Positions 1 to 45,309 are shown, counted from the stretch's first letter. The stretch: DNA of 57,224 nt from an uncultured Pirellulales bacterium (GCA_964492365.1 CAZBKA010000002.1:1208-58431), one strand, 5' to 3'. A program made the numbers and translations. Notes: generated from the sequence alone by a model not told the origin.

Positions 1-323
1 TTTACAGCGGGCCTATTTATAAAGAGATGGACGTTGAAGATAATAAAATCAGACTTTCGTTTGATTATGATGGCGGACTGGCTGCAAAGGGTGGTGAGCT
101 GAAGCAATTCCAGATTGCTGGTGAAGATAAGAAGTTTGTGGATGCCAAGGCGGTTATTGACGGCAAGAGTGTTGTTGTTTCATCGGATGTGGTTAGTAAG
201 CCTGTTGCGGTGAGGTATTGCTGGAGTAATATTGCTATTGGCAATCTTTATAATGGCGGTGATTTGCCGGCGAGCCCTTTCAGGACGGATGATTGGCCTG
301 GAGTTACGATTAATAATAAATAA
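1..323 (+). CDS. SASA/DUF303-family O-acetylesterase, C-terminal fragment (5' end lies outside the window)
   Basis: Frame 3 is open from the window edge. It reads YSGPIYKEMDVEDNKIRLSF...YCWSN...FRTDDWPG, the same C-terminal beta-sandwich module that occurs twice in the next ORF (YSGPVYREMKIEGDKI...FRTD.W.G). Confidence 0.6.
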   Translation, partial: YSGPIYKEMDVEDNKIRLSFDYDGGLAAKGGELKQFQIAGEDKKFVDAKAVIDGKSVVVSSDVVSKPVAVRYCWSNIAIGNLYNGGDLPASPFRTDDWPGVTINNK

Positions 324-351
324 GACGTTAGGTTAATTGAAGTGTTTTCAA

Positions 352-387
352 GCAGCTGGGAATTAAATATTTCCGGCTGCTTTTTTT
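352..387 (+). terminator. Rho-independent terminator
   Basis: GCAGCTGG (352-359) pairs with CCGGCTGC (373-380), 8 bp including one G-U. A T7 run follows at 381-387. Confidence 0.6.
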
Positions 388-477
388 ATGAACAACTTGC
401 CTGTAGAAATTGTAATGAGTACAATCATGCATTGTTATGGATGACCCTTTTTCTGTTTTTATGGAAGGAAATGTATA

Positions 478-11703: not shown

Positions 11704-11777
11704 AATGAGAAAATAGAGAATCCAAATTGTTACTATAAAATTTTTATATACATTTACCATATAAACTAAAAAAAAGA

Positions 11778-11806
11778 TTGACTTTCGTTTATTTGTTTGT
11801 TCAAAT
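11778..11806 (+). promoter_or_regulatory. Possible promoter of the cold-shock gene
   Basis: TTGACT, 17 nt spacer, TCAAAT. This would give a roughly 95 nt leader, as is common for csp genes. Confidence 0.3.
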
Positions 11807-11907
11807 TGTGGTGTGTACAGGGAGTTTCTTTCACCCCAAAAAGTGACTTCCAGCAATATTTGTTTTGGGGATTATTAAAGGTCGATTAGACCTTGGGAGT
11901 GACACAA

Positions 11908-12111
11908 GTGGATACAGGTACAGTAAAGTGGTTCAATGACAAAAAAGGTTTTGGTTTTATTACCCCTGACGACGGAAGTGAAGATCTTTTCGTACATCAC
12001 AGCGAGATCGCGGCAGAAGGCTATCGCAGCCTTAAAGATGGACAGAAAGTTTCGTATGAAGTAGCAAAAGGCGATAAAGGTTTGCAGGCAACAAAAGTTA
12101 CCGGCAACTAG
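11908..12111 (+). CDS. Cold-shock protein (CspA family)
   Basis: [15 protein letters not shown] (RNP1) and DLFVHHS (RNP2). The GTG start at 11908 has GGGAG 8 nt upstream. The track start TTG at 11893 is less likely. Confidence 0.9.
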
Positions 12112-12514
12112 TTCATTTTCTGCAGTATAAAAAGCCCAGCGTCCAGTGGGCCTTTGGAACCTCCGACGACGGTCGACAAAATATTTGATCATAGATAGTT
12201 TTGGATATTTTCCGGAGGTATACGAGGGAGTGTATACGCGGTTTATCAAAATTAGCGGTAATGTTCTGTCAAAATTGAAGGTTTGATATATATTGCTGCG
12301 GCTGTGTTGTAAATTGTGCTTTACCGATTGCGCATTACCAGTAGGTAGATTGCAGACAAAGTAAGTTTGTATTCATATCAGCCTAATAAGGTGCTGATGG
12401 AGCTGGTTTCGGGCTTGTGGGTGGTGTCTGTCTAAATTTTCGTTCATATCTGTAATTTCGTATCGTATCTATTCTAGTTCTATTCAGTTCATATTGAATT
12501 TTCGGCTAATTTTG

Positions 12515-12542
12515 TTGCAGTCAAGGCTGATGGTTATATAAT
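12515..12542 (+). promoter_or_regulatory. Putative promoter of the symporter gene
   Basis: TTGCAG, 16 nt spacer, TATAAT (12537-12542). Confidence 0.4.
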
Positions 12543-12606
12543 ACCCTTTTGTTTAATTAATCCTAAATTATCGTAGACATGAAGTCTTTTTAGAAAGGGA
12601 TTGGCC

Positions 12607-14268
12607 ATGGGTTTGAGTTTTGTAGACATTGCGGTGTTTGTGTTATTTCTCGTGGGGGTAGTTGCTATTGGCTTATTAAAGAGCCGATCAGAAAAAAACA
12701 CAAATGAAGATTATTTTCTCGCAGGCAGAGGATTGAAATGGTGGCTGATAGGCTTTTCTCTGATTGCCGCTAACATTTCGACTGAGCAGTTCGTTGGCAT
12801 GAGCGGTGACGCTGCGGGCAATGTTGGCTTGGCAATTGCAAGCTATGAGTGGATGGCGGCAATAACTCTTATTATTGTCGCATTTTTCTTTCTGCCTCAT
12901 TTCCTGCGAGCAGGTATTTATACAATGCCCGAGTTTCTGGAATATCGCTATGACTGGACAGCAAGAGCAATTATGGCGTCAGCAACGCTGATGATATATG
13001 TAATGCTGGTTGGCTGTATTACTTATTCAGGAGCATTAACAATAGAGGCCTTCGTAAAAGCGAGAATGGGTTATGAGATATCATTGTGGGCCGGTTCTAT
13101 TTTTATTGTTGTAATAGCATTGATCTATGTCGTAATGGGCGGTTTGAAAGCCTGTGCATGGGCGGATGTGATTCAGGGTTCTGCTCTTATTATCGCCGGT
13201 GCGGTTATTATGATCCTTGTATTTATCAAACTCGGACTGGTTGAACAGGCTACCATGCTAGTCGATGGAGCGGCAAAAACAGTGCCTCTGGATTCTGGTA
13301 TGAGTGCATGGGATCGGTTCTGGCATCTTAATACTAATAAGATGACGATGTATCTTCCTTCGGATCATCCTAAGCTGCCCTGGACGGCACTTATCGTTGG
13401 TTTGTGGATCCCCAACTTTTATTACTGGGGTTTGAATCAGTATATCACACAGAGAACACTTGGTTCAGCATCACTGTCTGAAGGCCAAAAAGGTATCGTA
13501 TTTTCAGCGTTTATGAAATTGATCATTCCTTTCGTTGTTGTTATTCCCGGCATTATTGCTTTTAACCTCTATTATCAGAATATGCAGGTTGACGGTGTTT
13601 ACAAATCAGACCTGGCTTTGGGACAGCTGATAGCGAATGTGGTTCCATCGAATGGATTGTTCGGCTTTGTTCTGGCAGCTTTGCTTGGTGCAGTTATTTC
13701 ATCTCTGGCGGCTTTGCTTAATGCGGCAAGTACAATTTTCTCGATGGATATCTACTGTAAATATATTAATAAAAATGCTCAGCAGAATCGGGTCGTTTCC
13801 ATGGGCAGAATAAGCGTTGCTGTATTCGGTGCGCTTGCAGTTATTATTTCGGCGTTAGTGCTTGATAATCCAAATCTTAATAAGGGTATCTTTACAGTTA
13901 TCCAGGAAGTACAGGGACTTATCAGTCCTGGTATTCTGGCAGCATTTGCCTTTGGTTTTGTAGTTAAAAAAGCTCCGAGAATTTGCGGGACAATATCGCT
14001 TGTGATTAACATTGTCGGTTACTCACTGCTGAAGGTTGCTATGCCAGAGCTAAACTTTCTGAATCGTATGGCGGTTTGTTTCGGGCTTTGTATTCTGGTT
14101 ATGGCTGCAATAAGACTTGCTAAACCACTTGCAGAACCGATCACGTTCGAAACTAAAACGACCATTGATCTTAAAGGTTCTAAAGGTGCTTTCATTGCAG
14201 GTATCGCGGTGATTATATTTACAGTAATACTTTATATTGTATTTAGCCCGCTTGGAATTGTTAAGTAA
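12607..14268 (+). CDS. Sodium:solute symporter (SSS/SGLT family)
   Basis: YFLAGRGLKWWLIGFSLIAANISTEQFVGMSG signature and about 13 TM segments. The ATG at 12607 has AAAGGGA 6 nt upstream. The track start is TTG at 12601. Confidence 0.8.
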   Translation: MGLSFVDIAVFVLFLVGVVAIGLLKSRSEKNTNEDYFLAGRGLKWWLIGFSLIAANISTEQFVGMSGDAAGNVGLAIASYEWMAAITLIIVAFFFLPHFLRAGIYTMPEFLEYRYDWTARAIMASATLMIYVMLVGCITYSGALTIEAFVKARMGYEISLWAGSIFIVVIALIYVVMGGLKACAWADVIQGSALIIAGAVIMILVFIKLGLVEQATMLVDGAAKTVPLDSGMSAWDRFWHLNTNKMTMYLPSDHPKLPWTALIVGLWIPNFYYWGLNQYITQRTLGSASLSEGQKGIVFSAFMKLIIPFVVVIPGIIAFNLYYQNMQVDGVYKSDLALGQLIANVVPSNGLFGFVLAALLGAVISSLAALLNAASTIFSMDIYCKYINKNAQQNRVVSMGRISVAVFGALAVIISALVLDNPNLNKGIFTVIQEVQGLISPGILAAFAFGFVVKKAPRICGTISLVINIVGYSLLKVAMPELNFLNRMAVCFGLCILVMAAIRLAKPLAEPITFETKTTIDLKGSKGAFIAGIAVIIFTVILYIVFSPLGIVK

Positions 14269-34129: not shown

Positions 34130-34651
34130 ATGGATATAAATCTTGTGTTGTTTAAAAAAGACGGCGGCATGAAATCCTTTCCGGTAAAACGGAATGTTGT
34201 TACAATAGGCAGAAGCCATAACTGTGATTTTCAGATACCAGTGATGTCGGTATCCAGAAAGCACTGTAAGTTAACATGCAAATCTGACGTTGTGACATTG
34301 CGTGACCTTGATTCACACAATGGAACCATTGTTAATGGCAAACCAATCAAAGAAACAACAATTGCCCCCGGTGACTCAATAGAAATAGGGCCTTTGGTAT
34401 TTGTCATACAGATAGACAATGAACCATCTGTTCTGAAAAACCCCAAACAGCAAGGAAATGCAAAAAAAGTTTCTCCAAAAACTGAAGATATACCTCTCAA
34501 AAAAGAAACTCCACCCAAAGAAAGCAAGCAGGATATTCCACCAAGCAAAGTTGAGGATGAAAATGCTATATCCGATGACCTGCTTGAAGGCAGTAGTTTT
34601 CTTAATTTGGATGAACTCGGTGACCTCAGTGATCTTGAAGAATTAAAATAA
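34130..34651 (+). CDS. FHA domain protein with an acidic, disordered C-terminal tail
   Basis: FHA core VTIGRSHNCDFQIPVMSVSRKHCKL...LRDLDSHNGTIVNGKPI. The tail is rich in K/E/P and ends in LDELGDLSDLEELK. Confidence 0.8.
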   Translation: MDINLVLFKKDGGMKSFPVKRNVVTIGRSHNCDFQIPVMSVSRKHCKLTCKSDVVTLRDLDSHNGTIVNGKPIKETTIAPGDSIEIGPLVFVIQIDNEPSVLKNPKQQGNAKKVSPKTEDIPLKKETPPKESKQDIPPSKVEDENAISDDLLEGSSFLNLDELGDLSDLEELK

Positions 34652-34736
34652 TAAACCTCTAAAAAAAAATTAGAAACTGTAATAATTACTTCAGTCGCAT
34701 ATTAAAAATTTTGTGTCGAGTTCTAAAAAGTATAAC

Positions 34737-34765
34737 TTGTATTTAAATAGCAATTGTGTTATTAT
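34737..34765 (+). promoter_or_regulatory. Possible promoter upstream of ATPase A
   Basis: TTGTAT, 17 nt spacer, TGtTATTAT. Confidence 0.3.
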
Positions 34766-34821
34766 TTTTGTAAGAAATAGCGGTTTTTAGGTAGTAATTA
34801 GGTTGCGAAAGAGGAAAATTG

Positions 34822-36333
34822 GTGCAAACTTTAGTTTTTAGTCCGATTAAATTGGCATTGCTCATAGGATGGTTTTTCCTGTGTTTCTGGCTTGCCCAGC
34901 GAACCCAGTACAGCCTGTTGGTGCCAAAGGATAAAAAAATAAGCGCGGCTTTGATGGCATTGCTACTGGGACCAATTGCATTTCTTATTTTCCTTTTCAT
35001 CGACCTGATGAAAAAGTCAGCTCAAAGCCAGAGCAATATGATTGAGCTTTTAAAAGAGTTCATTGCAAATATCTTCAAAAAAGAAAAAGAAGAACGTGAA
35101 GAATTCTCGATCAATCTCTTTGACTCATCGGGAAGAAATCTCAAAGAAATCTACAGCCATGGTAAGTCAAGCAGGGATTTGCAGGTTCTTGACCTTACTA
35201 CGGAAATAATATGGAAAGGGCTTGAACTTAATGCAAGCGACATCCTTATAGACCCGAAAGATGATTCGGTATCTACAGTAAGGCTTAGGATAGACGGAGT
35301 ATTGAGGATTATAGATCAGTTAGAAACGGACACCTGTCAGGCTGTGGTTAACAGTATCAAAGCTGTAGCCAATATGGATATAGCAGAAAGAAGAAGGCCT
35401 CAGGACGGTGCTTTTACCGCAAAAACTATCACAGGAAATGTTTCTTTCAGGGTAGCAAGCGCGGGTGCCTTAAATGGCGAGAAGTTATCTATAAGGGTAC
35501 TTAACCAGAACGCAAATCGATTCAGACTCGATAACATCGGTATTTCAAAAAAACAAGCAATTGTGATTCAAAATGCAATGAAAAAACCTTCCGGTATGAT
35601 TCTGATGTGCGGACCTACGGGAAGCGGAAAAACTACGACTATGTACGGCATGCTGAATGAAATTGATTTCAACCAGCGTAATGTAATCACAGTTGAGGAT
35701 CCGATAGAGTACGTTCTGCCGCAGGCAAGTCAGATCGAAGTAAATGCAAAGGCTGATATTACTTTTGCAAAATCATTAAGGAGCATTTTAAGACAGGACC
35801 CTGATGTGATATGTGTTGGTGAGATTCGAGATGAGGACACCGCTGCTATTGCATTGAGGGCATCACAAACCGGTCACCTGGTACTTGCCACGATTCACAG
35901 CAACAGCAATGCGGCAACAATTGTCAGATTAATGGACCTAGGGATCAGCCCCCTGCTTATCGCTACAGGTCTTAGCACACTTATATCTCAAAGGCTCGTG
36001 CGTAAACTTTGTGAAAATTGTAAACGACAGGCAAATCTGAGCCAAGCACAGATATTGAGCTTTAAAAAGAATAAAGTAAACTACCTGAATATTTATGAGG
36101 CTGTCGGATGTGAAAAATGTCACGGTACCGGATATCTTGGAAGAATAGCTATTTGCGATATACTTGATATCGATGATAATCTCAGGACTCTTATCGCAAA
36201 TGAAAAACTAGATATCGGGCAGCTGAGAAAAAACGGTGACGAAAAAGGTAAATCTAATCTTCAGAAACAAGGACTGAAAAAGGTCGTCGAAGGAATAACA
36301 AGCCTGGATGAACTTAAACGGGTTTTAGGATAA
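34822..36333 (+). CDS. Membrane-anchored GspE/PilB-family secretion ATPase (module A), catalytic motifs intact
   Basis: Two N-terminal TM helices. N2E-like block (RRRPQDGAF). Walker A CGPTGSGKTTT. Asp box ITVEDPIEY. Walker B DPDVICVGEIRD. His box GHLVLATIHSN. Tetra-Cys CENC...CEKCHGTGY. The GTG at 34822 lies 6 nt after GAGGA. The track start is TTG at 34819. Confidence 0.8.
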   Translation: MQTLVFSPIKLALLIGWFFLCFWLAQRTQYSLLVPKDKKISAALMALLLGPIAFLIFLFIDLMKKSAQSQSNMIELLKEFIANIFKKEKEEREEFSINLFDSSGRNLKEIYSHGKSSRDLQVLDLTTEIIWKGLELNASDILIDPKDDSVSTVRLRIDGVLRIIDQLETDTCQAVVNSIKAVANMDIAERRRPQDGAFTAKTITGNVSFRVASAGALNGEKLSIRVLNQNANRFRLDNIGISKKQAIVIQNAMKKPSGMILMCGPTGSGKTTTMYGMLNEIDFNQRNVITVEDPIEYVLPQASQIEVNAKADITFAKSLRSILRQDPDVICVGEIRDEDTAAIALRASQTGHLVLATIHSNSNAATIVRLMDLGISPLLIATGLSTLISQRLVRKLCENCKRQANLSQAQILSFKKNKVNYLNIYEAVGCEKCHGTGYLGRIAICDILDIDDNLRTLIANEKLDIGQLRKNGDEKGKSNLQKQGLKKVVEGITSLDELKRVLG

Positions 36334-36337
36334 TCTT

Positions 36338-36994
36338 ATGGGCATGCTTATTGCAATTATAGCTGGATTGATTTTTGCCTGGATAGCGATCAGGGTAGGT
36401 TTTTATGTTGCATGGTCCGTCATGTTCAATCTGGTTGTATCAATTTATATAGCTATCTCCCTGGGACCATTTGTTGCTGACAAGCTACCATTAGAAGGCG
36501 GTTTCGGTGCAGCAATTGTTTTAACAGGTCTGGCAGCGGCGGTCTTTGCAGTTCTTCAAGGCTCTTGCTATTTATTCTTCACGAGCCAGTATGAAATGTC
36601 TTTTCCCGCTATTTTTGACAGCGTAGCTTCAGGCATCACAGGATTTTTAACTGGAGTGTTGATCGTAAGCTTTCTGATTCTTCCTGTGGGGCTTATACGC
36701 CAGGGTACAGTGGCTGATAAAAATACTACGAAAGAAAGCTACCAACTGAACAGTTCCGCATATCTCAACTTCTGGTATAATGCTGTGCATTATCTGGTAG
36801 GAAAAGAGGAAAATGTTCAACCAGAAACACTAGTTGCCGGAATAATCAAAAACAATAAAAAAGTTAAAAATACCAAAGCAGAAGTTAAGGTTGTTGAGCA
36901 AGTAAAAGTAGTAGAACCAAACGAAGTTAAGGTCGAAGAAGTTAGCAAAGATAAACTTGGCACACCACCTGATTTTGACTTTGATAAAATATAA
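36338..36994 (+). CDS. CvpA-like 4-TM membrane protein (module A) with a K/V/E-rich tail
   Basis: Four hydrophobic segments. The N-terminus LIAIIAGLIFAWIAIRVGF resembles the CvpA (PF02674) start. Only a 4 nt gap separates it from the ATPase gene. Confidence 0.45.
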   Translation: MGMLIAIIAGLIFAWIAIRVGFYVAWSVMFNLVVSIYIAISLGPFVADKLPLEGGFGAAIVLTGLAAAVFAVLQGSCYLFFTSQYEMSFPAIFDSVASGITGFLTGVLIVSFLILPVGLIRQGTVADKNTTKESYQLNSSAYLNFWYNAVHYLVGKEENVQPETLVAGIIKNNKKVKNTKAEVKVVEQVKVVEPNEVKVEEVSKDKLGTPPDFDFDKI

Positions 36995-37047
36995 TCAGCT
37001 ATGCCTTATTTTCGGGTTTGTGTAATTCATCTGCCAAACTCAGCACA

Positions 37048-37090
37048 TAAAAAAAGCGAATATACCAATCGGCATATTCGCTTTTTTTTA
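37048..37090. terminator. Bidirectional rho-independent terminator
   Basis: Perfect 9 bp stem of AGCGAATAT (37055-37063) with ATATTCGCT (37074-37082). It is flanked by an A7 run and a T8 run and sits between convergent genes. Confidence 0.8.
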
Positions 37091-37107
37091 ATTTCAAAAA
37101 TATTAGC

Positions 37108-38109
37108 TTATTCAGCGTTTTCTTTTATGTATGCTATCAGCTCATCAACCTGTGCAAATGCGAGGCCTGTCACTGTATCTGCAGCACCATAGTAAATAGC
37201 GATTTTTCCGCTCGGTGCATCTGTCAAAGCTGCACATGGGAAACAAACATTCGGAGTATCACCAACACATTCATAGTCTTTTTGTGGTGACAGCAGATAA
37301 GGTCTGCAACGATATTTAACTTTCCATGGCTCATCAATATCAAGGATGGCACCACCCATGCTGTATACAAAACCATTACAGCTTGTCAGTACACCGTGAT
37401 AGATCAGCAGCCAGCCTTCAGTAGTTTCAATCGGGGTTGGACCTGGACCGACTTTTGTACATTCCCAGCTCATAACACCGGTACGTCTTGAGGCAAATAC
37501 GAATCTGTGCTTGCCCCAATAAGTCATATCTTTGCTGCGACTCAGGAAGATATCACCAAAAGGTGTATGACCAGTATCGGAAGGTCTTGAAAGCATTACG
37601 TATTCGCCGTTAATTTTTCTCGGGAACAACACACCATTTCTGTTATATGGCAAAAATGCATTTTCCATCTGGTGAAAAGTTTTGAAGTCCTTTGTATAAC
37701 CAACACCTATCGTGTAACCATGATAGTTATTGCACCAGATCACATAATATTTATCATCAACCTTGCAAACTCTGGGGTCATAACGCTCAATCATATTAGC
37801 TATTTCTGGATCATCACATTCGAAATGTATAGGCTCATTATCAATTTCGAAATTGTAACCATCTTTGCTGCGACCAGCATAAAGATTCATATGCCTACTT
37901 CTGTTATCAACACGAAATACGCCGGCAAATTGTCCCTTGAAAGGAACTACAGCACTGTTAAATATCGCATTTGAGCATGGAGTAAGATTCCTTGGAATAA
38001 CCGGGTTGGCATCGTATCGCCAAATAACATCATGTTTGCAATCAGCTGGCTTATCCTGCCAGGGAATATTAGGCAAAGCCTCTCCAATAATCGTTTGTTT
38101 TTTCGCCAT
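37108..38109 (-). CDS. GH130 family glycoside phosphorylase (beta-mannoside phosphorylase-like)
   Basis: About 330 aa five-bladed propeller pattern: PW...DANPVIPR...FNSAVVPF...YDPRVCKVDDKYY...NGVLFPRKINGEYVMLSRP...GAAD. Confidence 0.7.
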   Translation of the reverse strand: MAKKQTIIGEALPNIPWQDKPADCKHDVIWRYDANPVIPRNLTPCSNAIFNSAVVPFKGQFAGVFRVDNRSRHMNLYAGRSKDGYNFEIDNEPIHFECDDPEIANMIERYDPRVCKVDDKYYVIWCNNYHGYTIGVGYTKDFKTFHQMENAFLPYNRNGVLFPRKINGEYVMLSRPSDTGHTPFGDIFLSRSKDMTYWGKHRFVFASRRTGVMSWECTKVGPGPTPIETTEGWLLIYHGVLTSCNGFVYSMGGAILDIDEPWKVKYRCRPYLLSPQKDYECVGDTPNVCFPCAALTDAPSGKIAIYYGAADTVTGLAFAQVDELIAYIKENAE

Positions 38110-38201
38110 ACATCTTTCCTTTTTTTAATTAATACTGTCACTGTCTTTTAAATTACTAAAATAAATTTCAACTGATAAAAAGTTACGCCTTGAATTGCTT
38201 C

Positions 38202-38840
38202 TTAACGCATAATCCAGTTTTGTTCTTTAAATTTTAAAATCGCATCTGATCGAAATATCGGATCACCGCCAATTTTGTAATCAAGCCCGAGTGTTTTTCT
38301 CAGAAAAATTTTCTTACTGTTGCCATTTTCATCTTTAGCCGTGGGATGATCCAAAGCAATTGTCTCATTGCTGAGACCGGCAATAAAGAAACTTACATTC
38401 TTAGCGTTCGGATCAAAATCAGACCAGATAATCGCAATATCTTTTACATTGTCCGGCCCCTGAAGTACCTTGCTGCTTGTCTTATCAACAGATTCAAGAA
38501 ATGGATACTGCTTCTGATGCCGCAACTTAATCTGGTCAAAAACCGAAAGCGGAACATTTACACTTGCTGGTACAATCTGAAATGTATCAGTTACAAGCTC
38601 ACATTCGGGATAAAAATCAACATCATCACTGGTTTGATTGAGTATTGTCATAATAATGTACCAGAATCTTACCGGATGCTTTTGCCCTTCAAAACTAACT
38701 TGTATCTGCTGTGGGTGTTCATATTTGACTTCTAATGTCCAGTCCTGAGCCGACTGCACAACCGCCGGCGAAGGTGCCGCGATACAAAAACCTGCACTAA
38801 CAACCAATATAACTAAAAAAAGATAACTATATTTCTTCAT
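38202..38840 (-). CDS. Secreted hypothetical protein (212 aa)
   Basis: Signal peptide MKKYSYLFLVILVVSAGFCIAAP. No recognisable domain. Lies 92 nt upstream of, and is co-oriented with, the GH130 gene. Confidence 0.5.
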   Translation of the reverse strand: MKKYSYLFLVILVVSAGFCIAAPSPAVVQSAQDWTLEVKYEHPQQIQVSFEGQKHPVRFWYIIMTILNQTSDDVDFYPECELVTDTFQIVPASVNVPLSVFDQIKLRHQKQYPFLESVDKTSSKVLQGPDNVKDIAIIWSDFDPNAKNVSFFIAGLSNETIALDHPTAKDENGNSKKIFLRKTLGLDYKIGGDPIFRSDAILKFKEQNWIMR

Positions 38841-39497
38841 TGTGTATGCCTTAACAGAAAACTACTTTAAAGCCCATTTAAAACCCTTAAATATTCATCC
38901 GAAGCATGATTTTACAATAAAATAAGATAATATCCAAGTACATTTTCTGACTTTTTAGCTTCAATTTGAAAGCTACTGAAACATCGGTCGCGAATTATAA
39001 AGGCTTTTACCCATATCCATATACTATTGTGTTCAATATTATAGCAAGACAAGCGATTATTGCTGAAAAAACGATTATTTAACGATCAAAATTTTAGTTA
39101 GCTTAATTCAGTCTATATGCCACTTTAACAGCCGCGTTAACCAAGATTACTACTATTTTAGGCGAAGTTGAATGCAGCATCCTTCGACGTCTGATGGGCA
39201 AGCTGTCGACATTTCTGGATAGTCCCAGCACCTGGAGCCTCGATGTTTTCAGTTATAATGACAACAGGCAGTTTCTGCCATTTTTATTCAGAAAAATAGG
39301 CATATATCCAGCTATTAGTTCCGGTCTATTTAGTTACCACCGCTAACGACTTGATCAGCGCAACTATTTGTACGCTTCTTGGATTTTTGATCACAAAATA
39401 AAATAATTATCGGACAAAAAACGCTGAAAATACGCAAACTAACGTCTAATCCTCATTTTTAAGCTTAAAACAATCACTTATTGTTGAAGTACACCTG

Positions 39498-39525
39498 TTG
39501 ACAAACCAATGCAAAGCCTTATAAT
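39498..39525 (+). promoter_or_regulatory. Putative sigma70 promoter of the pilT module
   Basis: TTGACA (39498-39503), 16 nt spacer, TATAAT (39520-39525). Confidence 0.55.
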
Positions 39526-39551
39526 GAGACAGTTTAGGGGTAATAATAATT

Positions 39552-39593
39552 TGTTTGTTATTAATTGCCTGCTTTAACAAACAGTATTTTTTA
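39552..39593 (+). promoter_or_regulatory. Leader hairpin followed by a U-tract (possible attenuator) in the pilT 5' UTR
   Basis: TGTTTGTTA (39552-39560) pairs with TAACAAACA (39575-39583), 9 bp. The loop is 14 nt and is followed by GTATTTTTTA. Confidence 0.3.
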
Positions 39594-39640
39594 TAACTAT
39601 TTGTTACTTAGGGCGTTAATGTTCTAAAGGAGTTTTTTTT

Positions 39641-40774
39641 GTGACTGAAGGACAGCCAATAGGTCGTCATGTAATACTTGATCATGACCCTGAAATTAAT
39701 AAACTTTTCAGAGCTGCAATAAAGGTCGGCGCAAGTGACCTTCATCTTAAAGTAAACATGGTTCCCAAATTAAGAATACATGGTTCTTTAAAAAGTACTA
39801 CCGGTGAAAAATTAACCGAGGAAGATTCTGAAAAGCTGATATTTGAAATTCTAACCGAAAATCAGAAACAATTCTTCCTCGAACATGGGGCTCTCGACTT
39901 TGCACATCAGGTCAGCACTACTGATAGATTCCGTGTTAATATCTTCCGTCAGCGCGGTTTTATAAGTCTGGCTGCAAGGCATATTACAAGCAATATCCCT
40001 GCATTTGAAACCCTGCATATGCCATCCATTGTTGAAAAAATAGCAGAAAACCACTCCGGACTGGTACTTGTTACAGGGCCAACAGGTTCAGGTAAAAGCA
40101 CAACGATTGCTTCTATGATCGACCACATTAATGCTACCAGACCTTGTCATATCGTTACTATCGAAGACCCATTGGAGTTTTTGCATAACGATAAAAAAGC
40201 CATCGTTTCACAAAGAGAAATAGGAATAGATGTTCAAGATTTCGAACTTGCATTGAAATCTCTTATGCGTCAGGACCCCGATGTTGTTCTCGTCGGTGAG
40301 ATCAGGGACAATGAAACATTGACTGCTGCGATGAGGGCCGCCGAAACGGGGCATATGGTATTCGGAACCCTGCACTCTGTTAGTGCAGCCCAGACTATCC
40401 AGAGAATCCTCGATCTGTTTCCACAGGAAGAACGAGATCTGGCACGACAGACCTTTGCCCTGACTATCAGGGCCGTTATCAGTCAGCAGCTTTTGCCAGG
40501 TATCAAACCCGAAGCTACAAGAATACCAGCTATTGAAATACTGATAGCTAACCCCATCGTAAGGAAACTCATCTCTGAAGGAAGAGAAGCAGATATCCCT
40601 TCTGTCATAAAATCATGTCAGAATGAAGGTATGCAGGATTTCACCGAGTCGCTTCGAGTACTTATCACGGAAGAGTGGATAGACCTGAAAGTGGGGCTGA
40701 ATTACGCAACGAATGTTGAAGAATTGAAAATGGCATTAAAAGGGATTAGAAGTTCTACGAGCGGTATTCTGTAA
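39641..40774 (+). CDS. pilT: Type IV pilus retraction ATPase PilT/PilU family
   Basis: ASDLHLKV...LRIHG, Walker A TGPTGSGKSTT, TIEDPLEF, DPDVVLVGEIRD, GHMVFGTLHS. No Cys cluster. GTG start with AAGGAG upstream. Confidence 0.8.
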   Translation: MTEGQPIGRHVILDHDPEINKLFRAAIKVGASDLHLKVNMVPKLRIHGSLKSTTGEKLTEEDSEKLIFEILTENQKQFFLEHGALDFAHQVSTTDRFRVNIFRQRGFISLAARHITSNIPAFETLHMPSIVEKIAENHSGLVLVTGPTGSGKSTTIASMIDHINATRPCHIVTIEDPLEFLHNDKKAIVSQREIGIDVQDFELALKSLMRQDPDVVLVGEIRDNETLTAAMRAAETGHMVFGTLHSVSAAQTIQRILDLFPQEERDLARQTFALTIRAVISQQLLPGIKPEATRIPAIEILIANPIVRKLISEGREADIPSVIKSCQNEGMQDFTESLRVLITEEWIDLKVGLNYATNVEELKMALKGIRSSTSGIL

Positions 40775-40798
40775 ATTAAATTTCAAATGGAGCATTTC

Positions 40799-42469
40799 AT
40801 GCCTGATTTATTACTGACTTCTGTTGTTTTTGGGAGCTATATATCAATAGTAAAGCTTATCGTTTTCATGGCTTTGTTCTTTGGTTGGATGTGGCTAATA
40901 ACATGGGTGTATGAGGACGCGATAAACGTTGAAGCGAAGGAAATCTTCTGGAGTTCCCTGGCCTTTGGCATCGGTGCCGGTGCCGCTTTGCTATGGATGA
41001 TGATCCCTGCATTTGCTATAGGTTCAATTCTCTATGTACTTGCAGTGGGCGTTACTTCAATTGTTTATATACTACACCGCAACTCAAAGGTAATGCCATC
41101 GGACAGAATATTTACACCTGAACATATACGCAGCCTTTTGACCAAAAAGGATAAAAATGCGAAAGTTCAGATAAAAGGCTTCACTTTCTACACCACGAAT
41201 AAAAATGAAGTTCCAAGACCTGACACAAAAAGTAAGGACTTTCATGGATTCAAAGCTGCTTACGACATTATAAACGACGCATTAGAAAAAAGAACCAGCA
41301 CTATTATTTTCATTCCCACATCACAGAATTATTCAGTTACATACAATATCGACGGTGTAAATTTAAAACAGCCGGAGATGGACAATGAACTCGCACACCA
41401 CCTAGTCCGTTTTCTAAAACAATTGGCGGATCTCAACCTCGAAGAAAAACGGAAGCCGCAAAGCGGAAGGTTCAGAATTAAAAAAGACAATAAAGTTACT
41501 GACTGGGAAATTAACTGTGCAGGATCAACAGCAGGCGAACAGCTCCAGCTCAGGCTTATGACACAGGAAGTTGAAGAAAGAATATTAGACCTTGGTTTGA
41601 CAACACACCAGTTAGAGTCTCTTGAGCAGTTAAAAAAGCTTAAACATGGAATTGTTTTGGTAACAGGACCAAAACAAAGCGGCGTTACTACGACATTCTA
41701 CGCATTGCTAAGGAATCACGATGCGTTCTTAAATAGCATAAATACCCTCGAAAGAAAAACAACCTCTGTGTTGCCAAATATAACACAGGAAACATTCGAA
41801 CTAACCGATTCGGGAACTTCAACATTTGCTAAACGTCTGAGAACCATTTATAGAATGGGACCTAACATCGTAGGTGTTGAAGGATGTCATGATAGTGATA
41901 CTGCAAAAGAAATATGCAATGCCGCTCAGAATGACATTCTCAGTTATGTAGTCATTGAAGCCGACAGCGTAATAAAAGCTCTGTCCAAATGGATCAAACT
42001 GGTCGGGGATAGAAAATTAGCAACCGAAACTTTGTCAGGAATTTGCAACCAGAGGCTGTTAAGAAAACTCTGTGATGAATGTAAGCAGGGATATACACCA
42101 AATAAGGAACTGCTTAGAAAATTCAACCTGCCTGCAGACAAAGCCAAGGTCATGTACCGCGAAGGAAAAGTAGTATATGACAAACACGGTAAACCTTCAG
42201 AGTGCCCGCAATGTCACGGCATCGGTTTCATCGGAAGAACGGGCATATTTGAAGTAATATTATTGAATGATGAATTAAAACGGGCAATGTTAAATGCAAA
42301 GTCGATGCAGGACATTGATGCTATATTCAGAGGAGATAAAATGCTTTACCTCCAAGAACAGGGTCTTTGCAAAGTCATTACCGGAGTAACATCCGTCAAT
42401 GAAATGATAAGAGCATTGTCTTCTTCAGTGTCAAAAACTGCTGAAAAACCAGTTAATAAAAAAGAATAG
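40799..42469 (+). CDS. Membrane-anchored GspE-like protein with degenerate ATPase motifs (module B)
   Basis: Three N-terminal TM helices. N2E-like block (KRKPQSGRF). The P-loop reads TGPKQSGVTTT, with no Lys. The Asp box, Walker B and His box are all degenerate. The tetra-Cys CDEC...CPQCHGIGF is retained. The ATG at 40799 lies 6 nt after GGAG. The track start is 40787. Confidence 0.7.
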   Translation: MPDLLLTSVVFGSYISIVKLIVFMALFFGWMWLITWVYEDAINVEAKEIFWSSLAFGIGAGAALLWMMIPAFAIGSILYVLAVGVTSIVYILHRNSKVMPSDRIFTPEHIRSLLTKKDKNAKVQIKGFTFYTTNKNEVPRPDTKSKDFHGFKAAYDIINDALEKRTSTIIFIPTSQNYSVTYNIDGVNLKQPEMDNELAHHLVRFLKQLADLNLEEKRKPQSGRFRIKKDNKVTDWEINCAGSTAGEQLQLRLMTQEVEERILDLGLTTHQLESLEQLKKLKHGIVLVTGPKQSGVTTTFYALLRNHDAFLNSINTLERKTTSVLPNITQETFELTDSGTSTFAKRLRTIYRMGPNIVGVEGCHDSDTAKEICNAAQNDILSYVVIEADSVIKALSKWIKLVGDRKLATETLSGICNQRLLRKLCDECKQGYTPNKELLRKFNLPADKAKVMYREGKVVYDKHGKPSECPQCHGIGFIGRTGIFEVILLNDELKRAMLNAKSMQDIDAIFRGDKMLYLQEQGLCKVITGVTSVNEMIRALSSSVSKTAEKPVNKKE

Positions 42470-42524
42470 ATAATCGCGTTTAATAACGGATTTTCTTTAT
42501 AGAGCTAAATTTGGAGAAAAATTG

Positions 42525-43685
42525 ATGGCCGCTTTAGTAATACTTTTGATAGTCGCAGGCTGTGTTGCATACGAGTTTTTCAAAGGAACATGCGTAAAAG
42601 CTTTTGCTAATCTAATTGCCGCTGTATGCTCGGTCGCTGTTGCTTTTGGATTTTTTGAAGTACTTGGAAACGTTATCATTGCTCGTCTTGATATCAGGGA
42701 TAATGCCGCTATCATTCCATGGGTAATGCCTTCATGTTTTTTGATCGTTGCTCTTTTGGTTTTTACGATATTTTCAACGATAACCACCCAGATAATGAAA
42801 AAACCAGTTGACTTCGGTGATCTGCCTGAAAAAATCGGAAAATGCAGCTTCGGGCTGATAACAGGTCTTGTCACCGCTGGAGCTGTACTGGCAGTAACTG
42901 CTATGATGCCGTTGCCTTCTCAATATCCTTATCAACGTTTTGATGAAAATAATTTAGATGTTAAAAACCCTTCTAAAGTTCTGCTGAACATCGACGGCTT
43001 CACAACAGGATGGGCTAACATGATGAGTAAAGGAAGTTTCAGCTCGGGCAAAAGTCTTGCTTTTATGCATGCTGATTTCCTCGACACAGCTTTCCTCTCA
43101 AGAAACACCGATAAAGAAATATTTAATTTTACTTCAACAAGCGTGCTTGAAATACCAAATAAAAAAGCCGTCTGGCCAGGTGCGGTTGGTTTAAAAGATA
43201 CTGAAGAAAATGAACTTACTGCCAAAACCGGAAACCTTTTCGTAATAGTAAGGATGGGACTTAAAAATTCTTCCTTAACAGAAACAAAAAAATTCACCCC
43301 ATCACAAGTCAGACTAATCTGCAAAAGCGATCTTGACACATCACTGGCGCCCAAGGGACAGGGACAGACATTCTTCCCGGTCGGATATATGGAAAGCAAT
43401 CAACAGGTAAAAGTTGTTAAAATCCACGATGCAATATTAATCGATGTCACAAAAATTATAGGCAAAACCAAGTGGATAGATTTTCTCTTTGAAATACCCA
43501 TGGATTACAGACCTGAAATGATTCAGTTCAAACAAAACAATGCCGCCCTGCTGCCTGCTATGACTACCGCTGAACAGGCACCTGAGGTAATCAGCTTCAG
43601 CGATCCAAAGCCACTTGTTGAAGAAGTTGAAGAAAACGCTGATAACACAGAAAATACTGACGACAATGCAGAAACCAATAAGTAA
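42525..43685 (+). CDS. CvpA-like 4-TM membrane protein with a roughly 230 aa C-terminal soluble domain and an acidic tail (module B)
   Basis: The N-terminus LVILLIVAGCVAYEFFKGTCVKAFANLIAAV resembles CvpA. Four TM segments. The ATG at 42525 lies 7 nt after GGAGA. Confidence 0.45.
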   Translation: MAALVILLIVAGCVAYEFFKGTCVKAFANLIAAVCSVAVAFGFFEVLGNVIIARLDIRDNAAIIPWVMPSCFLIVALLVFTIFSTITTQIMKKPVDFGDLPEKIGKCSFGLITGLVTAGAVLAVTAMMPLPSQYPYQRFDENNLDVKNPSKVLLNIDGFTTGWANMMSKGSFSSGKSLAFMHADFLDTAFLSRNTDKEIFNFTSTSVLEIPNKKAVWPGAVGLKDTEENELTAKTGNLFVIVRMGLKNSSLTETKKFTPSQVRLICKSDLDTSLAPKGQGQTFFPVGYMESNQQVKVVKIHDAILIDVTKIIGKTKWIDFLFEIPMDYRPEMIQFKQNNAALLPAMTTAEQAPEVISFSDPKPLVEEVEENADNTENTDDNAETNK

Positions 43686-43773: not shown

Positions 43774-44262
43774 TTAGCTTTTACACTTAAAAACAAAGAT
43801 ACAAATGTCATCCTTTTTGCATTGCTGTTTTTTCAACTTGAAGCTTATCCCATCACCGAATTCCTTTGCCCAGGTTCCATATTCTGCAACCCCAACCTTG
43901 TCACATATAGTCACTCCAAGTTCTGCTTTGCCGCTATTACGCAATATCTCAAACCATGGACATTTATTTATCTTTATAGTAAAACCCCCGCCGTCGCTGT
44001 CTTTCTCTGCTTCAAAAATAAAACCGTCAATGCTCAGCTTCTCAGTAAAACCATCAAAAAGCCCGTCCAAACCGTCAGACAATCCGGCCAACTCTTTCAT
44101 CTTACGAGCCTGTATCTTCGCCAGAACCTTCCAAACCTCTGCATCAATTTCCAATGCCTTATCAAACCCGAACTGTTCCTGAACCTTAACGAACCACAAC
44201 CCGTCAACAGCGGTATAGCACCTGTGAAGATACTCCGCTTTTTGTGTTTTATCCAATAACAT
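43774..44262 (-). CDS. Small Cys-containing protein, possibly ATC-hydrolase/DUF6125-like
   Basis: DGLWF...CPWFEIL...ELGVTICDKV pattern. The assignment is weak. Confidence 0.35.
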   Translation of the reverse strand: MLLDKTQKAEYLHRCYTAVDGLWFVKVQEQFGFDKALEIDAEVWKVLAKIQARKMKELAGLSDGLDGLFDGFTEKLSIDGFIFEAEKDSDGGGFTIKINKCPWFEILRNSGKAELGVTICDKVGVAEYGTWAKEFGDGISFKLKKQQCKKDDICIFVFKCKS

Positions 44263-44349: not shown

Positions 44350-45309
44350 TCAGCTAGAAACTTCGGGACAACACATTATGTAGTCCATCACATTGCTCAT
44401 CTTCGCAGTCGCAACGGCTATCGTACAATCAGCGGCACCATAATAAAGATTCAACTGGTCGGTCTCCTTGCTGATAGTAACACCCGTCGGAAAAACAACC
44501 CCACCAACATCACCAACCTGCTCATAAAACTCACGAGGTCCAAGTATCCATTCGTCGCTTCGCCTTAAAACTTTCCAAGGCTCATTAAGGTCTAGAAGCA
44601 CCAAACCAAGACGGTACAAGGCGCCGGCTGTGGTATTACGAACACCATGATAAAACATAAGCCAGCCTTCAGATGTTTCAACCGGCTGACAAGCCAGGCC
44701 CACCCTGTGGCAATCCCAGTATGCATGTCGCGACGGAATAAGCACCGCATGGTCGCCCCAGTGTTTCAAGTCAGGGGAAAAACTAATCCAGATATGAGCC
44801 TCCCCACTAACGATTGGCCGATGGATCAAAGCAAACCTGCCTCTGAACCTGCGAGGGAAAAGACAAGCATCCTTATCCTCAGGAGGAAGCAAAACACCAA
44901 GACGCGCAAACGTCTTAAAATTTTTCGTTATAGCAAGAGAAACTACAGGTCCGCCTTCACTAAAGGATGTATAAGTAATTGCGTACTGCTTTTGCTCTTC
45001 AAGCCAGATAATCCTCGGATCCTCTAGCCCCCACCGCTCTTCCCTGCTGCTGTGGTCAGCTTTCATCGTAGGCTCTGAATCTATCTGCCAGTTTGTAAAT
45101 CCGTCGGCACTTCTGGCAACGGTTAGATGAGAAAACCCCCTCATATCCTCAACCCGGGCAAGGATAAGCGTCTCATTATTGATTTTTATTGCACCAGGAT
45201 TCATCACCGCATTAACCGGGTAAGGCCAATCTTTAGGTGTCAGAATCGGATTTCCCTCATATTTTGTAAAAAGCTCATAAGCCTTCTTCTGCAGTTCAAT
45301 ATTAGGCAT
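44350..45309 (-). CDS. GH130 family glycosidase/phosphorylase (second, divergent paralog)
   Basis: YEGNPILTP...NPGAI...LEDPRIIWLEE...DACLFPRRFRGRFALIHRP...YYGAAD. Confidence 0.7.
   Translation of the reverse strand: MPNIELQKKAYELFTKYEGNPILTPKDWPYPVNAVMNPGAIKINNETLILARVEDMRGFSHLTVARSADGFTNWQIDSEPTMKADHSSREERWGLEDPRIIWLEEQKQYAITYTSFSEGGPVVSLAITKNFKTFARLGVLLPPEDKDACLFPRRFRGRFALIHRPIVSGEAHIWISFSPDLKHWGDHAVLIPSRHAYWDCHRVGLACQPVETSEGWLMFYHGVRNTTAGALYRLGLVLLDLNEPWKVLRRSDEWILGPREFYEQVGDVGGVVFPTGVTISKETDQLNLYYGAADCTIAVATAKMSNVMDYIMCCPEVSS

Follow-up and report, generated by a model that had tools for sequence, protein, structure and literature searches.

Predicted membrane-anchored relatives of pilus-type ATPases encoded next to CvpA-type membrane proteins in two conserved gene clusters of Phycisphaerae

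The window, the whole stretch of DNA that was analysed (57,224 nucleotides; GCA_964492365.1 CAZBKA010000002.1:1208-58431, from an uncultured Pirellulales bacterium), contains six open reading frames grouped in two modules, each joining a PilB/GspE-type protein preceded by hydrophobic N-terminal segments to a CvpA-type membrane protein, with a gene coding for an FHA protein in module A and for a PilT protein in module B. The presence of the six ORFs, as proposed in an earlier note, was confirmed. For the three genes with two possible start codons, the RBS spacing and the N-termini of the homologues favour the starts of the earlier note, the homologues of the module B GspE-like protein starting at MPDLLL. 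In module A, 4 nt separate the ATPase stop codon from the next gene, and the gaps in module B are 24 and 55 nt. A promoter-like site was found by a consensus scan about 115 nt upstream of PilT, with a 12/12 match to the sigma-70 consensus. It is likely the start of the module B transcription unit, although the total number of sites in the region is no more than expected by chance, so that only the perfect match and its position speak for it, and planctomycete promoters are not characterised.

Table 1 Features of the two modules (coordinates counted from the first nucleotide of the window).
Feature	Coordinates	Strand	Alternative start	Description
FHA protein (module A)	34130-34651	+		Soluble partner; FHA (phosphothreonine-binding) domain, disordered linker, acidic Leu/Asp-rich C-terminal tail
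GspE-like A	34822-36333	+	34819 (TTG; GTG 34822 more likely)	PilB/GspE-type ATPase; two N-terminal hydrophobic helices, N2E domain, catalytic domain, tetracysteine zinc motif
CvpA-like A	36338-36994	+		CvpA-type 4-TM protein with a tail of about 95 residues
Promoter-like site	39498-39525	+		TTGACA, 16 nt spacer, TATAAT
PilT (module B)	39641-40774	+		Soluble PilT/PilU-family hexameric ATPase, catalytic motifs intact
GspE-like B	40799-42469	+	40787	Anchored pseudo-ATPase; three predicted N-terminal TM helices, PilB/GspE fold, zinc motif kept
CvpA-like B	42525-43685	+	42522	CvpA-type 4-TM domain (residues 1-130), conserved domain of about 230 residues of unknown fold inferred to be periplasmic, variable acidic tail

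We, first, investigated the family membership of the soluble partners and of the motor proteins. The Pfam FHA domain was found at residues 24-87 of the first protein (3.9e-20; 72.5 bits against a gathering score of 20.7). Among the loci related to module A (numbered L), an FHA gene lies directly upstream of the anchored ATPase in the window, L003, L004, L005, L006 (= L098), L008 and L099, but not in L001, L007 or L011, and the acidic tails are conserved in character. The T2SSE profile matched GspE-like A, GspE-like B and PilT with E-values of 8.7e-113, 7.6e-51 and 8.9e-45, respectively. PilT scored above the curated NCBIfam cut-off of pilT_fam (TIGR01420; 420.5 bits against 319.1), with Walker A GK[ST] present in 59/59 homologues of related loci. 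In contrast, GspE-like A scored below the cut-offs of the GspE (TIGR02533; 412 bits against 630) and PilB (TIGR02538; 406 bits against 676) equivalogs, and GspE-like B reached only 208 and 183 bits.

Hydrophobic N-termini precede the ATPase core in both GspE-like proteins. In GspE-like A (2e-90 to GspE 4pht), residues 117-502 align to residues 114-496 of V. cholerae/V. vulnificus EpsE/GspE, so that the GspL-binding N1E domain is replaced. The Walker A motif GPTGSGKTTT, the Asp box, the Walker B and the His box are invariant in 41 sampled relatives. The N-terminal membrane segments are strongly conserved, more than a mere anchor would need. Their topology is nevertheless uncertain, as the two hydrophobic segments of GspE-like A are joined by a loop with four positive charges, which fits the positive-inside rule poorly. 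The two N-terminal anchors are not detectably homologous.

The earlier note, which described GspE-like B as a membrane-anchored GspE-like protein like that of module A, missed that it is a conserved pseudo-enzyme. In this protein GPKQSGVTTT replaces GPTGSGKTTT, and the Walker A lysine is V/I/L/A, and never K, in the 65/65 locus homologues in which the motif was found as well as in all 41 sampled database relatives. The Asp box EDPIE becomes ERxPS, the Walker B motif GEIRD becomes ADCED, and the His-box His is lost, these changes being conserved across the family, while the fold, the zinc motif and many structural residues are kept. An AF2 model built with a 91-sequence alignment (pLDDT 79.6) predicted helices at residues 21-47, 52-72 and 76-99, and a Foldseek search gave a TM-score, normalised to the target, of up to 0.91 to PilB 5tsh.

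The membrane partners were then examined. The window proteins themselves gave weak Colicin_V (PF02674) scores, formally below the gathering score of 29.3 bits, with 22.6 bits (1.2e-4) for CvpA-like A and 29.2 bits for CvpA-like B. However, 13/13 relatives of the module A protein (best 8.9e-10) and 55/55 relatives of the module B protein (best 1.2e-9) matched this profile at E<=0.01, and none of these 68 family members matched T2SSF, the GspF/PilC profile. Four helices were found in AF2 and in the hydropathy scan. In CvpA-like B, the motif D-x-G...ERxGR...G located between TM3 and TM4 is invariant, and residues D97, G99, G106 and G115 are invariant or nearly so, matching the conserved Asp and three Gly described for CvpA (bioRxiv 10.1101/2020.09.25.314492). 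The residues K21-G22-T23 and D97/G99/E103/R104/G106/R107 lie in the two positively charged loops. The CvpA C-terminus is predicted to be periplasmic and of variable length (bioRxiv 10.1101/2020.09.25.314492), and the periplasmic location is inferred here from charge distribution only. The extra domain of CvpA-like B has no Pfam or PDB match, and single-sequence AF2 was uninformative beyond the four helices. This family comprises 101 clusters at 50% identity with E<=1e-30, all with the same architecture. CvpA-like A evolves fast, with 24-28% identity outside the window's clade. The two modules, described as paralogous in the earlier note, are so only at family level, as the comparison of CvpA-like A with CvpA-like B gave an hhalign probability of 54%.

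We next asked whether this gene arrangement is conserved outside this genome. Starting from CvpA-like B, the anchored GspE-like gene was found directly upstream in 77/77 metagenome loci with upstream DNA, and PilT was also present in 56 of about 58 loci with room for it, one locus (L064) having the pseudo-ATPase and CvpA-like pair without PilT within 1.3 kb upstream. The triad was also found in L004, L005 and L012-L016, in a complete Phycisphaerales genome and in the cultured Limihaloglobus sulfuriphilus (L097), a carrier with a complete genome that makes experiments possible. The module A pair is present in every module A locus that extends past the ATPase gene. The flanks otherwise vary, the next most frequent large neighbours occurring in only 22 and 18 loci, although a 49-aa ORF after module B and a HEAT-repeat gene after module A are other conserved neighbours. 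The two modules are neighbours only in the window's own clade (window, L004 and L005).

No pilin, PilC, secretin or prepilin peptidase was found among the larger ORFs of the window scanned with Pfam, nor any prepilin (G-F-T-L-I-E-type) motif in a six-frame search of the window. In about 1 Mb of flanking DNA from 96 related loci and the window, no PilC, secretin or PilMNO homologue was detected by phmmer, a screen based on single Omnitrophota queries which could miss very divergent homologues. The only non-anchored relative retrieved (Omnitrophota, L010) sits in a textbook pilus operon, which shows what the screen would have detected. Searches of the literature for CvpA with GspE or PilT found nothing relevant. 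The proposal of the earlier note, that the pairing of a membrane-anchored GspE-family ATPase with a CvpA-type protein is a candidate uncharacterised envelope machine, is thus supported, as none of the outcomes that it had named as refuting it was observed.

Taken with about even confidence, the explanation we favour is that these modules are two versions of one Phycisphaerae-specific inner-membrane machine, in which a PilB/GspE-fold protein tied to the membrane by its own N-terminal helices works with the CvpA-family 4-TM protein encoded directly downstream, and not with the usual GspL/PilM docking proteins and GspF/PilC platform. In module A, the anchored protein would itself be the ATP-hydrolysing motor, put under Ser/Thr-phosphorylation control by the FHA protein. 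In module B, the anchored protein, unable to hydrolyse ATP, would act as a membrane-fixed adaptor or stator recruiting the soluble, active PilT hexamer. ATP-driven movements of the cytoplasmic ring might be passed to the conserved cytoplasmic loops of the CvpA-like protein and, through its helices, to its C-terminal segment on the periplasmic side, work being thus done in the envelope without a pilus filament. The physical contacts, the topology, the direction of force transmission and the envelope role are inferred from genomics only, without interaction, expression or phenotype data, and the idea of two versions of one machine rests on the ATPase and CvpA families only.

Other explanations can be considered. 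The modules might belong to a divergent type IV filament or T2SS-like machine whose pilins, prepilin peptidase and outer-membrane channel are encoded elsewhere, the CvpA-like proteins having taken over the platform role of PilC/GspF, with module A as extension unit and module B as retraction unit (PilT plus adaptor). The known work of the PilB/GspE and PilT families is filament extension and retraction, which the split into an active PilB-like module and a PilT module mirrors, and pilT genes seem often to be unlinked from other pilus genes. Moreover, a prepilin-type N_methyl protein is encoded divergently upstream of PilT in L015 and L036 and another at the edge of L085, and planctomycetes probably carry many prepilin-like genes and show fibres of unknown assembly (PMC12673574). 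This explanation appears doubtful, as no PilC, secretin, PilMNO or peptidase was found around the 96 loci and no prepilin motif in the window, although the rest of these genomes could not be scanned and pilins, PilC and PilD may be encoded there. In addition, CvpA-like proteins apparently lack the large cytoplasmic domains through which PilC/GspF engage the ATPase, and each module has its own membrane partner whereas PilB and PilT would normally share one platform.

Less likely still, the PilT of module B could be the ordinary retraction motor of a canonical type IV pilus encoded elsewhere, the anchored pseudo-PilB and the CvpA-like protein being accessory regulators that hold, store or gate PilT at the membrane, and module A a separate, unrelated system. 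The PilT score above the curated threshold, the L064 locus and the fact that catalytically dead paralogues may commonly regulate or act as decoys of their active relatives agree with this view, but the triad is kept together in nearly all loci with room for it, and neither the large conserved, probably periplasmic, domain of CvpA-like B nor a second module with the same ATPase-plus-CvpA logic and without PilT is explained. It is very unlikely that the adjacency is merely inherited synteny, with CvpA-like proteins acting alone as in other bacteria. All loci come from one class, so shared ancestry contributes to the counts, and the other conserved neighbours may or may not be functional. However, the proteins have diverged to 25-40% identity (CvpA-like) and 52-64% (ATPases) while the same-strand adjacency with gaps of 4-55 nt survives and the flanks are shuffled, the same pairing occurs twice with distantly related members of both families, and in the window's clade the modules were relocated as intact units.

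In comparison with the T2SS/type IVa pilus inner-membrane motor (GspE-GspL-GspF; PilB/PilT-PilM-PilC), the ATPase superfamily and fold are the same, with N2E and a C-terminal ATPase domain carrying a tetracysteine zinc motif, a PilT-family member is present, and a cytoplasmic ring acting on a polytopic inner-membrane protein is the presumed logic, but the ATPase carries membrane helices instead of N1E, the partner is a CvpA-family protein, no pilus genes were found nearby within the limits of the screens, and the module B PilB-like protein is catalytically dead. E. coli CvpA shares the 4-TM inner-membrane domain with the conserved Asp/Gly motif but is not reported with any ATPase partner, its function being unknown although linked to deoxycholate resistance and the sigma-E response (bioRxiv 10.1101/2020.09.25.314492), and the window proteins carry long extra C-terminal segments. 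Mycobacterium tuberculosis MarP (Rv3671c) would follow the same architectural principle as CvpA-like B, with a CvpA-like 4-TM domain fused to a periplasmic serine protease, but has apparently no linked secretion-type ATPase, and the extra domain found here matches no protease or other known family. In the archaellum motor FlaI-FlaH-FlaJ, a GspE-superfamily ATPase probably works with a second, non-hydrolysing nucleotide-binding ring at the membrane (cf. PMC6011876), conceptually like PilT plus the anchored pseudo-ATPase, but FlaH is presumably a RecA/KaiC-type protein and not a dead PilB paralogue, FlaJ a PilC-type platform, and a filament is assembled. The proposed logic also resembles mechanotransmission of the FtsEX or MacB type, in which a cytoplasmic ATPase would drive a small polytopic membrane protein whose periplasmic domain does the work, no substrate crossing the membrane. 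This is a functional analogy only, supported by architecture alone. The ATPase family (ABC) and the membrane fold are unrelated.

Secretion-superfamily ATPases (PilB, GspE, PilT) are known only as soluble rings recruited to PilC/GspF-type platforms or to type IV secretion channels. The family studied here differs in that it carries its own predicted membrane anchor, is paired with a CvpA-type protein in every locus extending far enough to show it, and in one version keeps a catalytically dead copy next to an active PilT. A tentative, more far-reaching possibility is that of a filament-less envelope machine of a new kind, in which pilus-type hexameric ATPases (PilB-like, or PilT docked on a dead, membrane-anchored PilB paralogue) drive CvpA-family membrane proteins to do mechanical or transport work in the planctomycete periplasm, which would give the first mechanistic context for the widespread but unexplained CvpA family and give secretion-superfamily ATPases a new class of membrane partner. 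If these proteins work together, the finding enlarges what this motor family can drive, supplies a testable partner and energy source for the CvpA family, which is conserved across bacterial phyla and whose function is still unknown (bioRxiv 10.1101/2020.09.25.314492), and points to an unstudied envelope function in Phycisphaerae, in a phylum whose envelope biology and macromolecule uptake remain unexplained (PMC12673574).

The six plus-strand ORFs named in the earlier note are present and are organized in two modules, module A consisting of an FHA protein, a PilB/GspE-type ATPase (GspE-like A) and a membrane protein (CvpA-like A), and module B of a PilT-type ATPase, a second PilB/GspE-type protein (GspE-like B) and a larger membrane protein (CvpA-like B). 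For the three genes with two possible start codons, the spacing of the ribosome-binding sites and the N-termini of the homologues favour the starts that the earlier note had chosen. Two minus-strand genes are located between the modules, one coding for a GH130 phosphorylase and the other for a 212-aa protein with a signal-peptide-like N-terminus and no Pfam match. The left part of the window is rich in large glycan-active proteins (SASA esterase, Laminin_G_3/DUF5060 and GH67N/malectin). The 800-nt stretch upstream of PilT, without a convincing ORF, holds a small hairpin and, about 115 nt upstream of PilT, a perfect TTGACA-16-TATAAT site, the only 12/12 match to the sigma-70 consensus in the region. 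No Rfam family and no tRNA were found in the window, and the search for a defence system with PADLOC gave only generic P-loop matches. The GC skew is strongly positive up to about 30 kb (up to +0.38) and negative afterwards, with the cumulative maximum at 28-30 kb. This switch coincides with the change in gene orientation at about 29.4 kb and may reflect strand bias of transcription or a replication landmark.

Coordinates of the features of the window and of related loci (L numbers designate the loci retrieved from other assemblies and metagenomes).
Sequence	Feature	Position	Strand	Remark
Window	FHA protein (module A)	34130-34651	+	
Window	GspE-like A	34819 or 34822 to 36333	+	
Window	CvpA-like A	36338-36994	+	218 aa, 4 nt after GspE-like A
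Window	Minus-strand genes flanking module B	37108-38109, 38202-38840, 43774-44262, 44350-45309	-	two GH130 (beta-mannoside phosphorylase-like) paralogues, a DUF6125/ATC_hydrolase-like protein and the 212-aa protein
Window	Stretch without a convincing ORF	38841-39640		800 nt, upstream of PilT
Window	Small hairpin	39267-39279		
Window	Sigma-70 consensus match	39498-39525		
Window	PilT (module B)	39641-40774	+	
Window	GspE-like B	40787 or 40799 to 42469	+	
Window	CvpA-like B	42522 or 42525 to 43685	+	387 aa
L012	49-aa ORF	13142-13291	-	
L013	49-aa ORF	13139-13288	-	
L015	49-aa ORF	12909-13058	-	
L001	HEAT-repeat gene	12375-14168	-	
L003	HEAT-repeat gene	12367-14142	-	
L098	HEAT-repeat gene	12316-14094	-	
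L099	HEAT-repeat gene	12264-14069	-	
L016	Long CvpA-like B homologue	11733-13508		
L064	Irregular module B locus	1-1316		no PilT within 1.3 kb upstream of the pseudo-ATPase
L070	Irregular module B locus	1610-3229		pseudo-ATPase split into three overlapping ORFs

We, next, assigned the proteins to families with Pfam and NCBIfam profiles. The FHA domain was found with an E-value of 3.9e-20 and T2SSE with 8.7e-113 for GspE-like A and 7.6e-51 for GspE-like B, whereas NCBIfam placed PilT above the curated PilT/PilU cut-off (420 against 319 bits) and both GspE-like proteins far below the GspE and PilB equivalog cut-offs. Residues 117-502 of GspE-like A align with residues 114-496 of EpsE/GspE, so that the N2E and catalytic domains are present but the N1E domain that binds GspL is replaced by hydrophobic helices. 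The two membrane proteins hit Pfam Colicin_V only weakly, with 22.6 bits (CvpA-like A) and 29.2 bits (CvpA-like B) for a gathering score of 29.3. Their relatives were collected and scanned one by one, and 13/13 relatives of the module A protein and 55/55 of the module B protein hit Colicin_V while none hits the GspF/PilC family (T2SSF), which led us to reject the possibility that the CvpA-like proteins are diverged GspF/PilC. They also keep the Asp/Gly motif before TM4 that is described as the hallmark of CvpA. The two CvpA-like proteins are only distantly related to each other, hhalign giving a weak match over TM3-TM4 only (probability 54%, E 1.3e-4), and homology between the N-terminal anchors of the two GspE-like proteins is not supported (hhalign probability 4.8%).

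A new observation was that the GspE-like protein of module B is a conserved pseudo-ATPase. The Walker A motif GPTGSGKTTT, the Asp box EDPIE and the Walker B motif GEIRD of family A are replaced in family B by GPK(K/Q)SGVTTT, ERxPS and ADCED (VEGCHD in the window), respectively, and the histidine of the His box, present in family A, is lost. These changes are uniform in all sampled relatives, while family A is invariant and canonical. In the related loci, the residue at the position of the Walker A lysine is V/I/L/A in 65/65 homologues in which the motif was found, while PilT has GK[ST] in 59/59. The fold is nevertheless maintained. AlphaFold2 with a 91-sequence alignment gave a pLDDT of 79.6 and Foldseek a TM-score, normalised to the target, of up to 0.91 to PilB. 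The tetracysteine zinc motif and many structural residues are conserved between families A and B. The predicted model shows three N-terminal transmembrane helices (21-47, 52-72 and 76-99), the sequence of which is strongly conserved, suggesting more than a passive anchor.

The conservation of the gene linkage was first examined from the ATPase side. Relatives of GspE-like A with 58-64% identity over the full length are abundant in Phycisphaerae, Sedimentisphaerales and Planctomycetota assemblies. A genome scan with this protein returned only 8 loci, and a word-indexed search with CvpA-like A found only 11 close relatives because this protein evolves fast. In every locus that extends past the ATPase gene, a CvpA-like A homologue follows directly (L001/L002, L003-L008, L011, L098 and L099), L006 and L098 being probably the same organism because their HEAT-repeat proteins are identical. 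An FHA gene precedes the ATPase in L003-L006, L008, L098 and L099 but not in L001, L007 or L011. In the window and in L003-L006 and L008, all FHA partners end in an acidic Leu/Asp-rich tail (for example ...LDELGDLSDLEELK), which shows a short resemblance to the C-terminus of a 49-aa ORF of module B loci (...LMELDLEELAVCS), and the two may be similar docking peptides. Outside the window's own clade, a HEAT-repeat protein of about 590-600 aa (52-78% identity) is encoded convergently right after CvpA-like A in every module A locus (L001, L003, L098 and L099, also L006-L008 and L011). It has no homologue in the 57 kb window and may be a further component or simply conserved synteny.

A stricter reverse test was then run for module B, in which metagenomes were searched with an alignment of CvpA-like B proteins and the upstream DNA was inspected. 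Of the 80 loci, 77 have at least 130 nt of upstream DNA, and all 77 have a GspE-like B homologue immediately upstream, preceded by PilT in 56 of the roughly 58 loci with room for it. L064 is one clear exception, and in L070 the split of the pseudo-ATPase gene indicates either a frameshift or a sequencing error. The same triad is found in five further loci with different flanks, one of them a complete 6.2 Mb Phycisphaerales genome, in the close relatives of the window L004 and L005, and in the cultured Limihaloglobus sulfuriphilus (CP019646.1). The flanks are not conserved: after the three genes and a small ORF, the commonest large neighbours occur in only 22 and 18 of 85 loci. This small ORF codes for an acidic protein of 49 aa and lies convergently about 150 nt after CvpA-like B in 75 of 85 module B loci. 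At about 80% identity it is better conserved than the three large proteins, it has no Pfam annotation in the precomputed tables, and tblastn finds no copy in the window. An exhaustive HMMER search showed that CvpA-like B defines a family of 101 clusters at 50% identity with E<=1e-30, all with the same architecture, and the named members, even at 25-30% identity, are all Phycisphaerae or Planctomycetota. About 16 of 81 homologues (L016, L028, L031, L035, L047, L049, L050, L059, L060, L063-L065, L073, L075, L076 and L095) are 580-639 aa long and carry a further C-terminal domain of about 200 aa with no Pfam match.

Modules A and B are neighbours, 2.6 kb apart, only in the window and its two close relatives L004 (CAYZEH010000002.1) and L005 (DAOWCP010000011.1), whereas in other genomes they lie at separate loci, module A being usually next to thrS-infC-rpmI-rplT-pheS and lpxI-lpxD. 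The window's clade has also lost both the HEAT-repeat gene and the 49-aa ORF as neighbours. The GspE-like A proteins of L004 and L005 are 89-90% identical to that of the window, yet one assembly is labelled 'uncultured Pirellulales bacterium' and the other 'Phycisphaerae bacterium'. The Pirellulales labels on L004 and L006-L008 are probably wrong, so they are not evidence that the system occurs in Planctomycetia.

We also investigated whether these loci belong to a standard pilus or T2SS. The larger ORFs of the window carry no PilC/GspF, secretin, prepilin peptidase or pilin domains, and no class III signal motif occurs in any reading frame of the window. Queries for PilC, secretin, PilM/N/O and pilins were taken from the one canonical operon retrieved (Omnitrophota L010, whose PilB is 41% identical and has no membrane anchor) and were run against about 1 Mb of sequence from 96 loci. 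No PilC, secretin or PilMNO was found, although very divergent homologues could be missed with such single-sequence queries and the remainder of these genomes could not be scanned, and only three loci had a weak prepilin-like neighbour.

In CvpA-like B, the loops after TM1 and TM3 are positively charged and hold the invariant residues K21-G22-T23 and D97, G99, E103, R104, G106 and R107, whereas the TM2-TM3 loop is acidic. This fits an N-out/C-out topology and agrees with the predicted periplasmic, variable C-terminus of CvpA. The conserved extra domain of 230 residues would then be periplasmic and the invariant loops would face the cytoplasmic ATPase ring. For this domain, a profile of 55 sequences found nothing in PDB sequences or Pfam, and AF2 without an alignment failed (pLDDT 39). 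We propose, by inference, that an ATP-driven ring tethered at the membrane acts on the CvpA-like protein, which transmits the work to the periplasm. In module A the ring would be the anchored ATPase itself, under FHA/phosphothreonine control, and in module B it would be PilT, held by the dead anchored paralogue. One point does not fit well, as the loop between the two hydrophobic segments of GspE-like A carries four positive charges, which is unusual for a periplasmic loop.

Other explanations were considered. Pilins and a peptidase may be encoded elsewhere, in which case the CvpA-like proteins would replace PilC as the platform, with module A extending a filament and module B retracting it, and this cannot be excluded without whole-genome scans. 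PilT may also serve a canonical pilus, with the other two proteins acting as regulators. Pure synteny without function is unlikely, given the divergence of the proteins, the shuffled flanks and the repetition of the pairing.

The components belong to known families, the secretion-superfamily ATPases, CvpA and FHA. At least locally, the arrangement does not satisfy the platform, pilin, peptidase and secretin criteria of type IV filament systems. Full-text literature searches found no description of a GspE/PilT-CvpA pairing or of membrane-anchored PilB/GspE proteins, and the function of CvpA itself is reported as unknown. We consider the system as a secretion-superfamily ATPase machine that differs from those known by a new membrane partner and a pseudo-enzyme subunit. 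That it might be a filament-less machine of a new kind is possible but less likely than not. The evidence is entirely comparative-genomic. The interest of these modules lies in how cleanly the linkage is conserved, in the combination of a pseudo-ATPase with PilT, and in the handle that it offers on CvpA.
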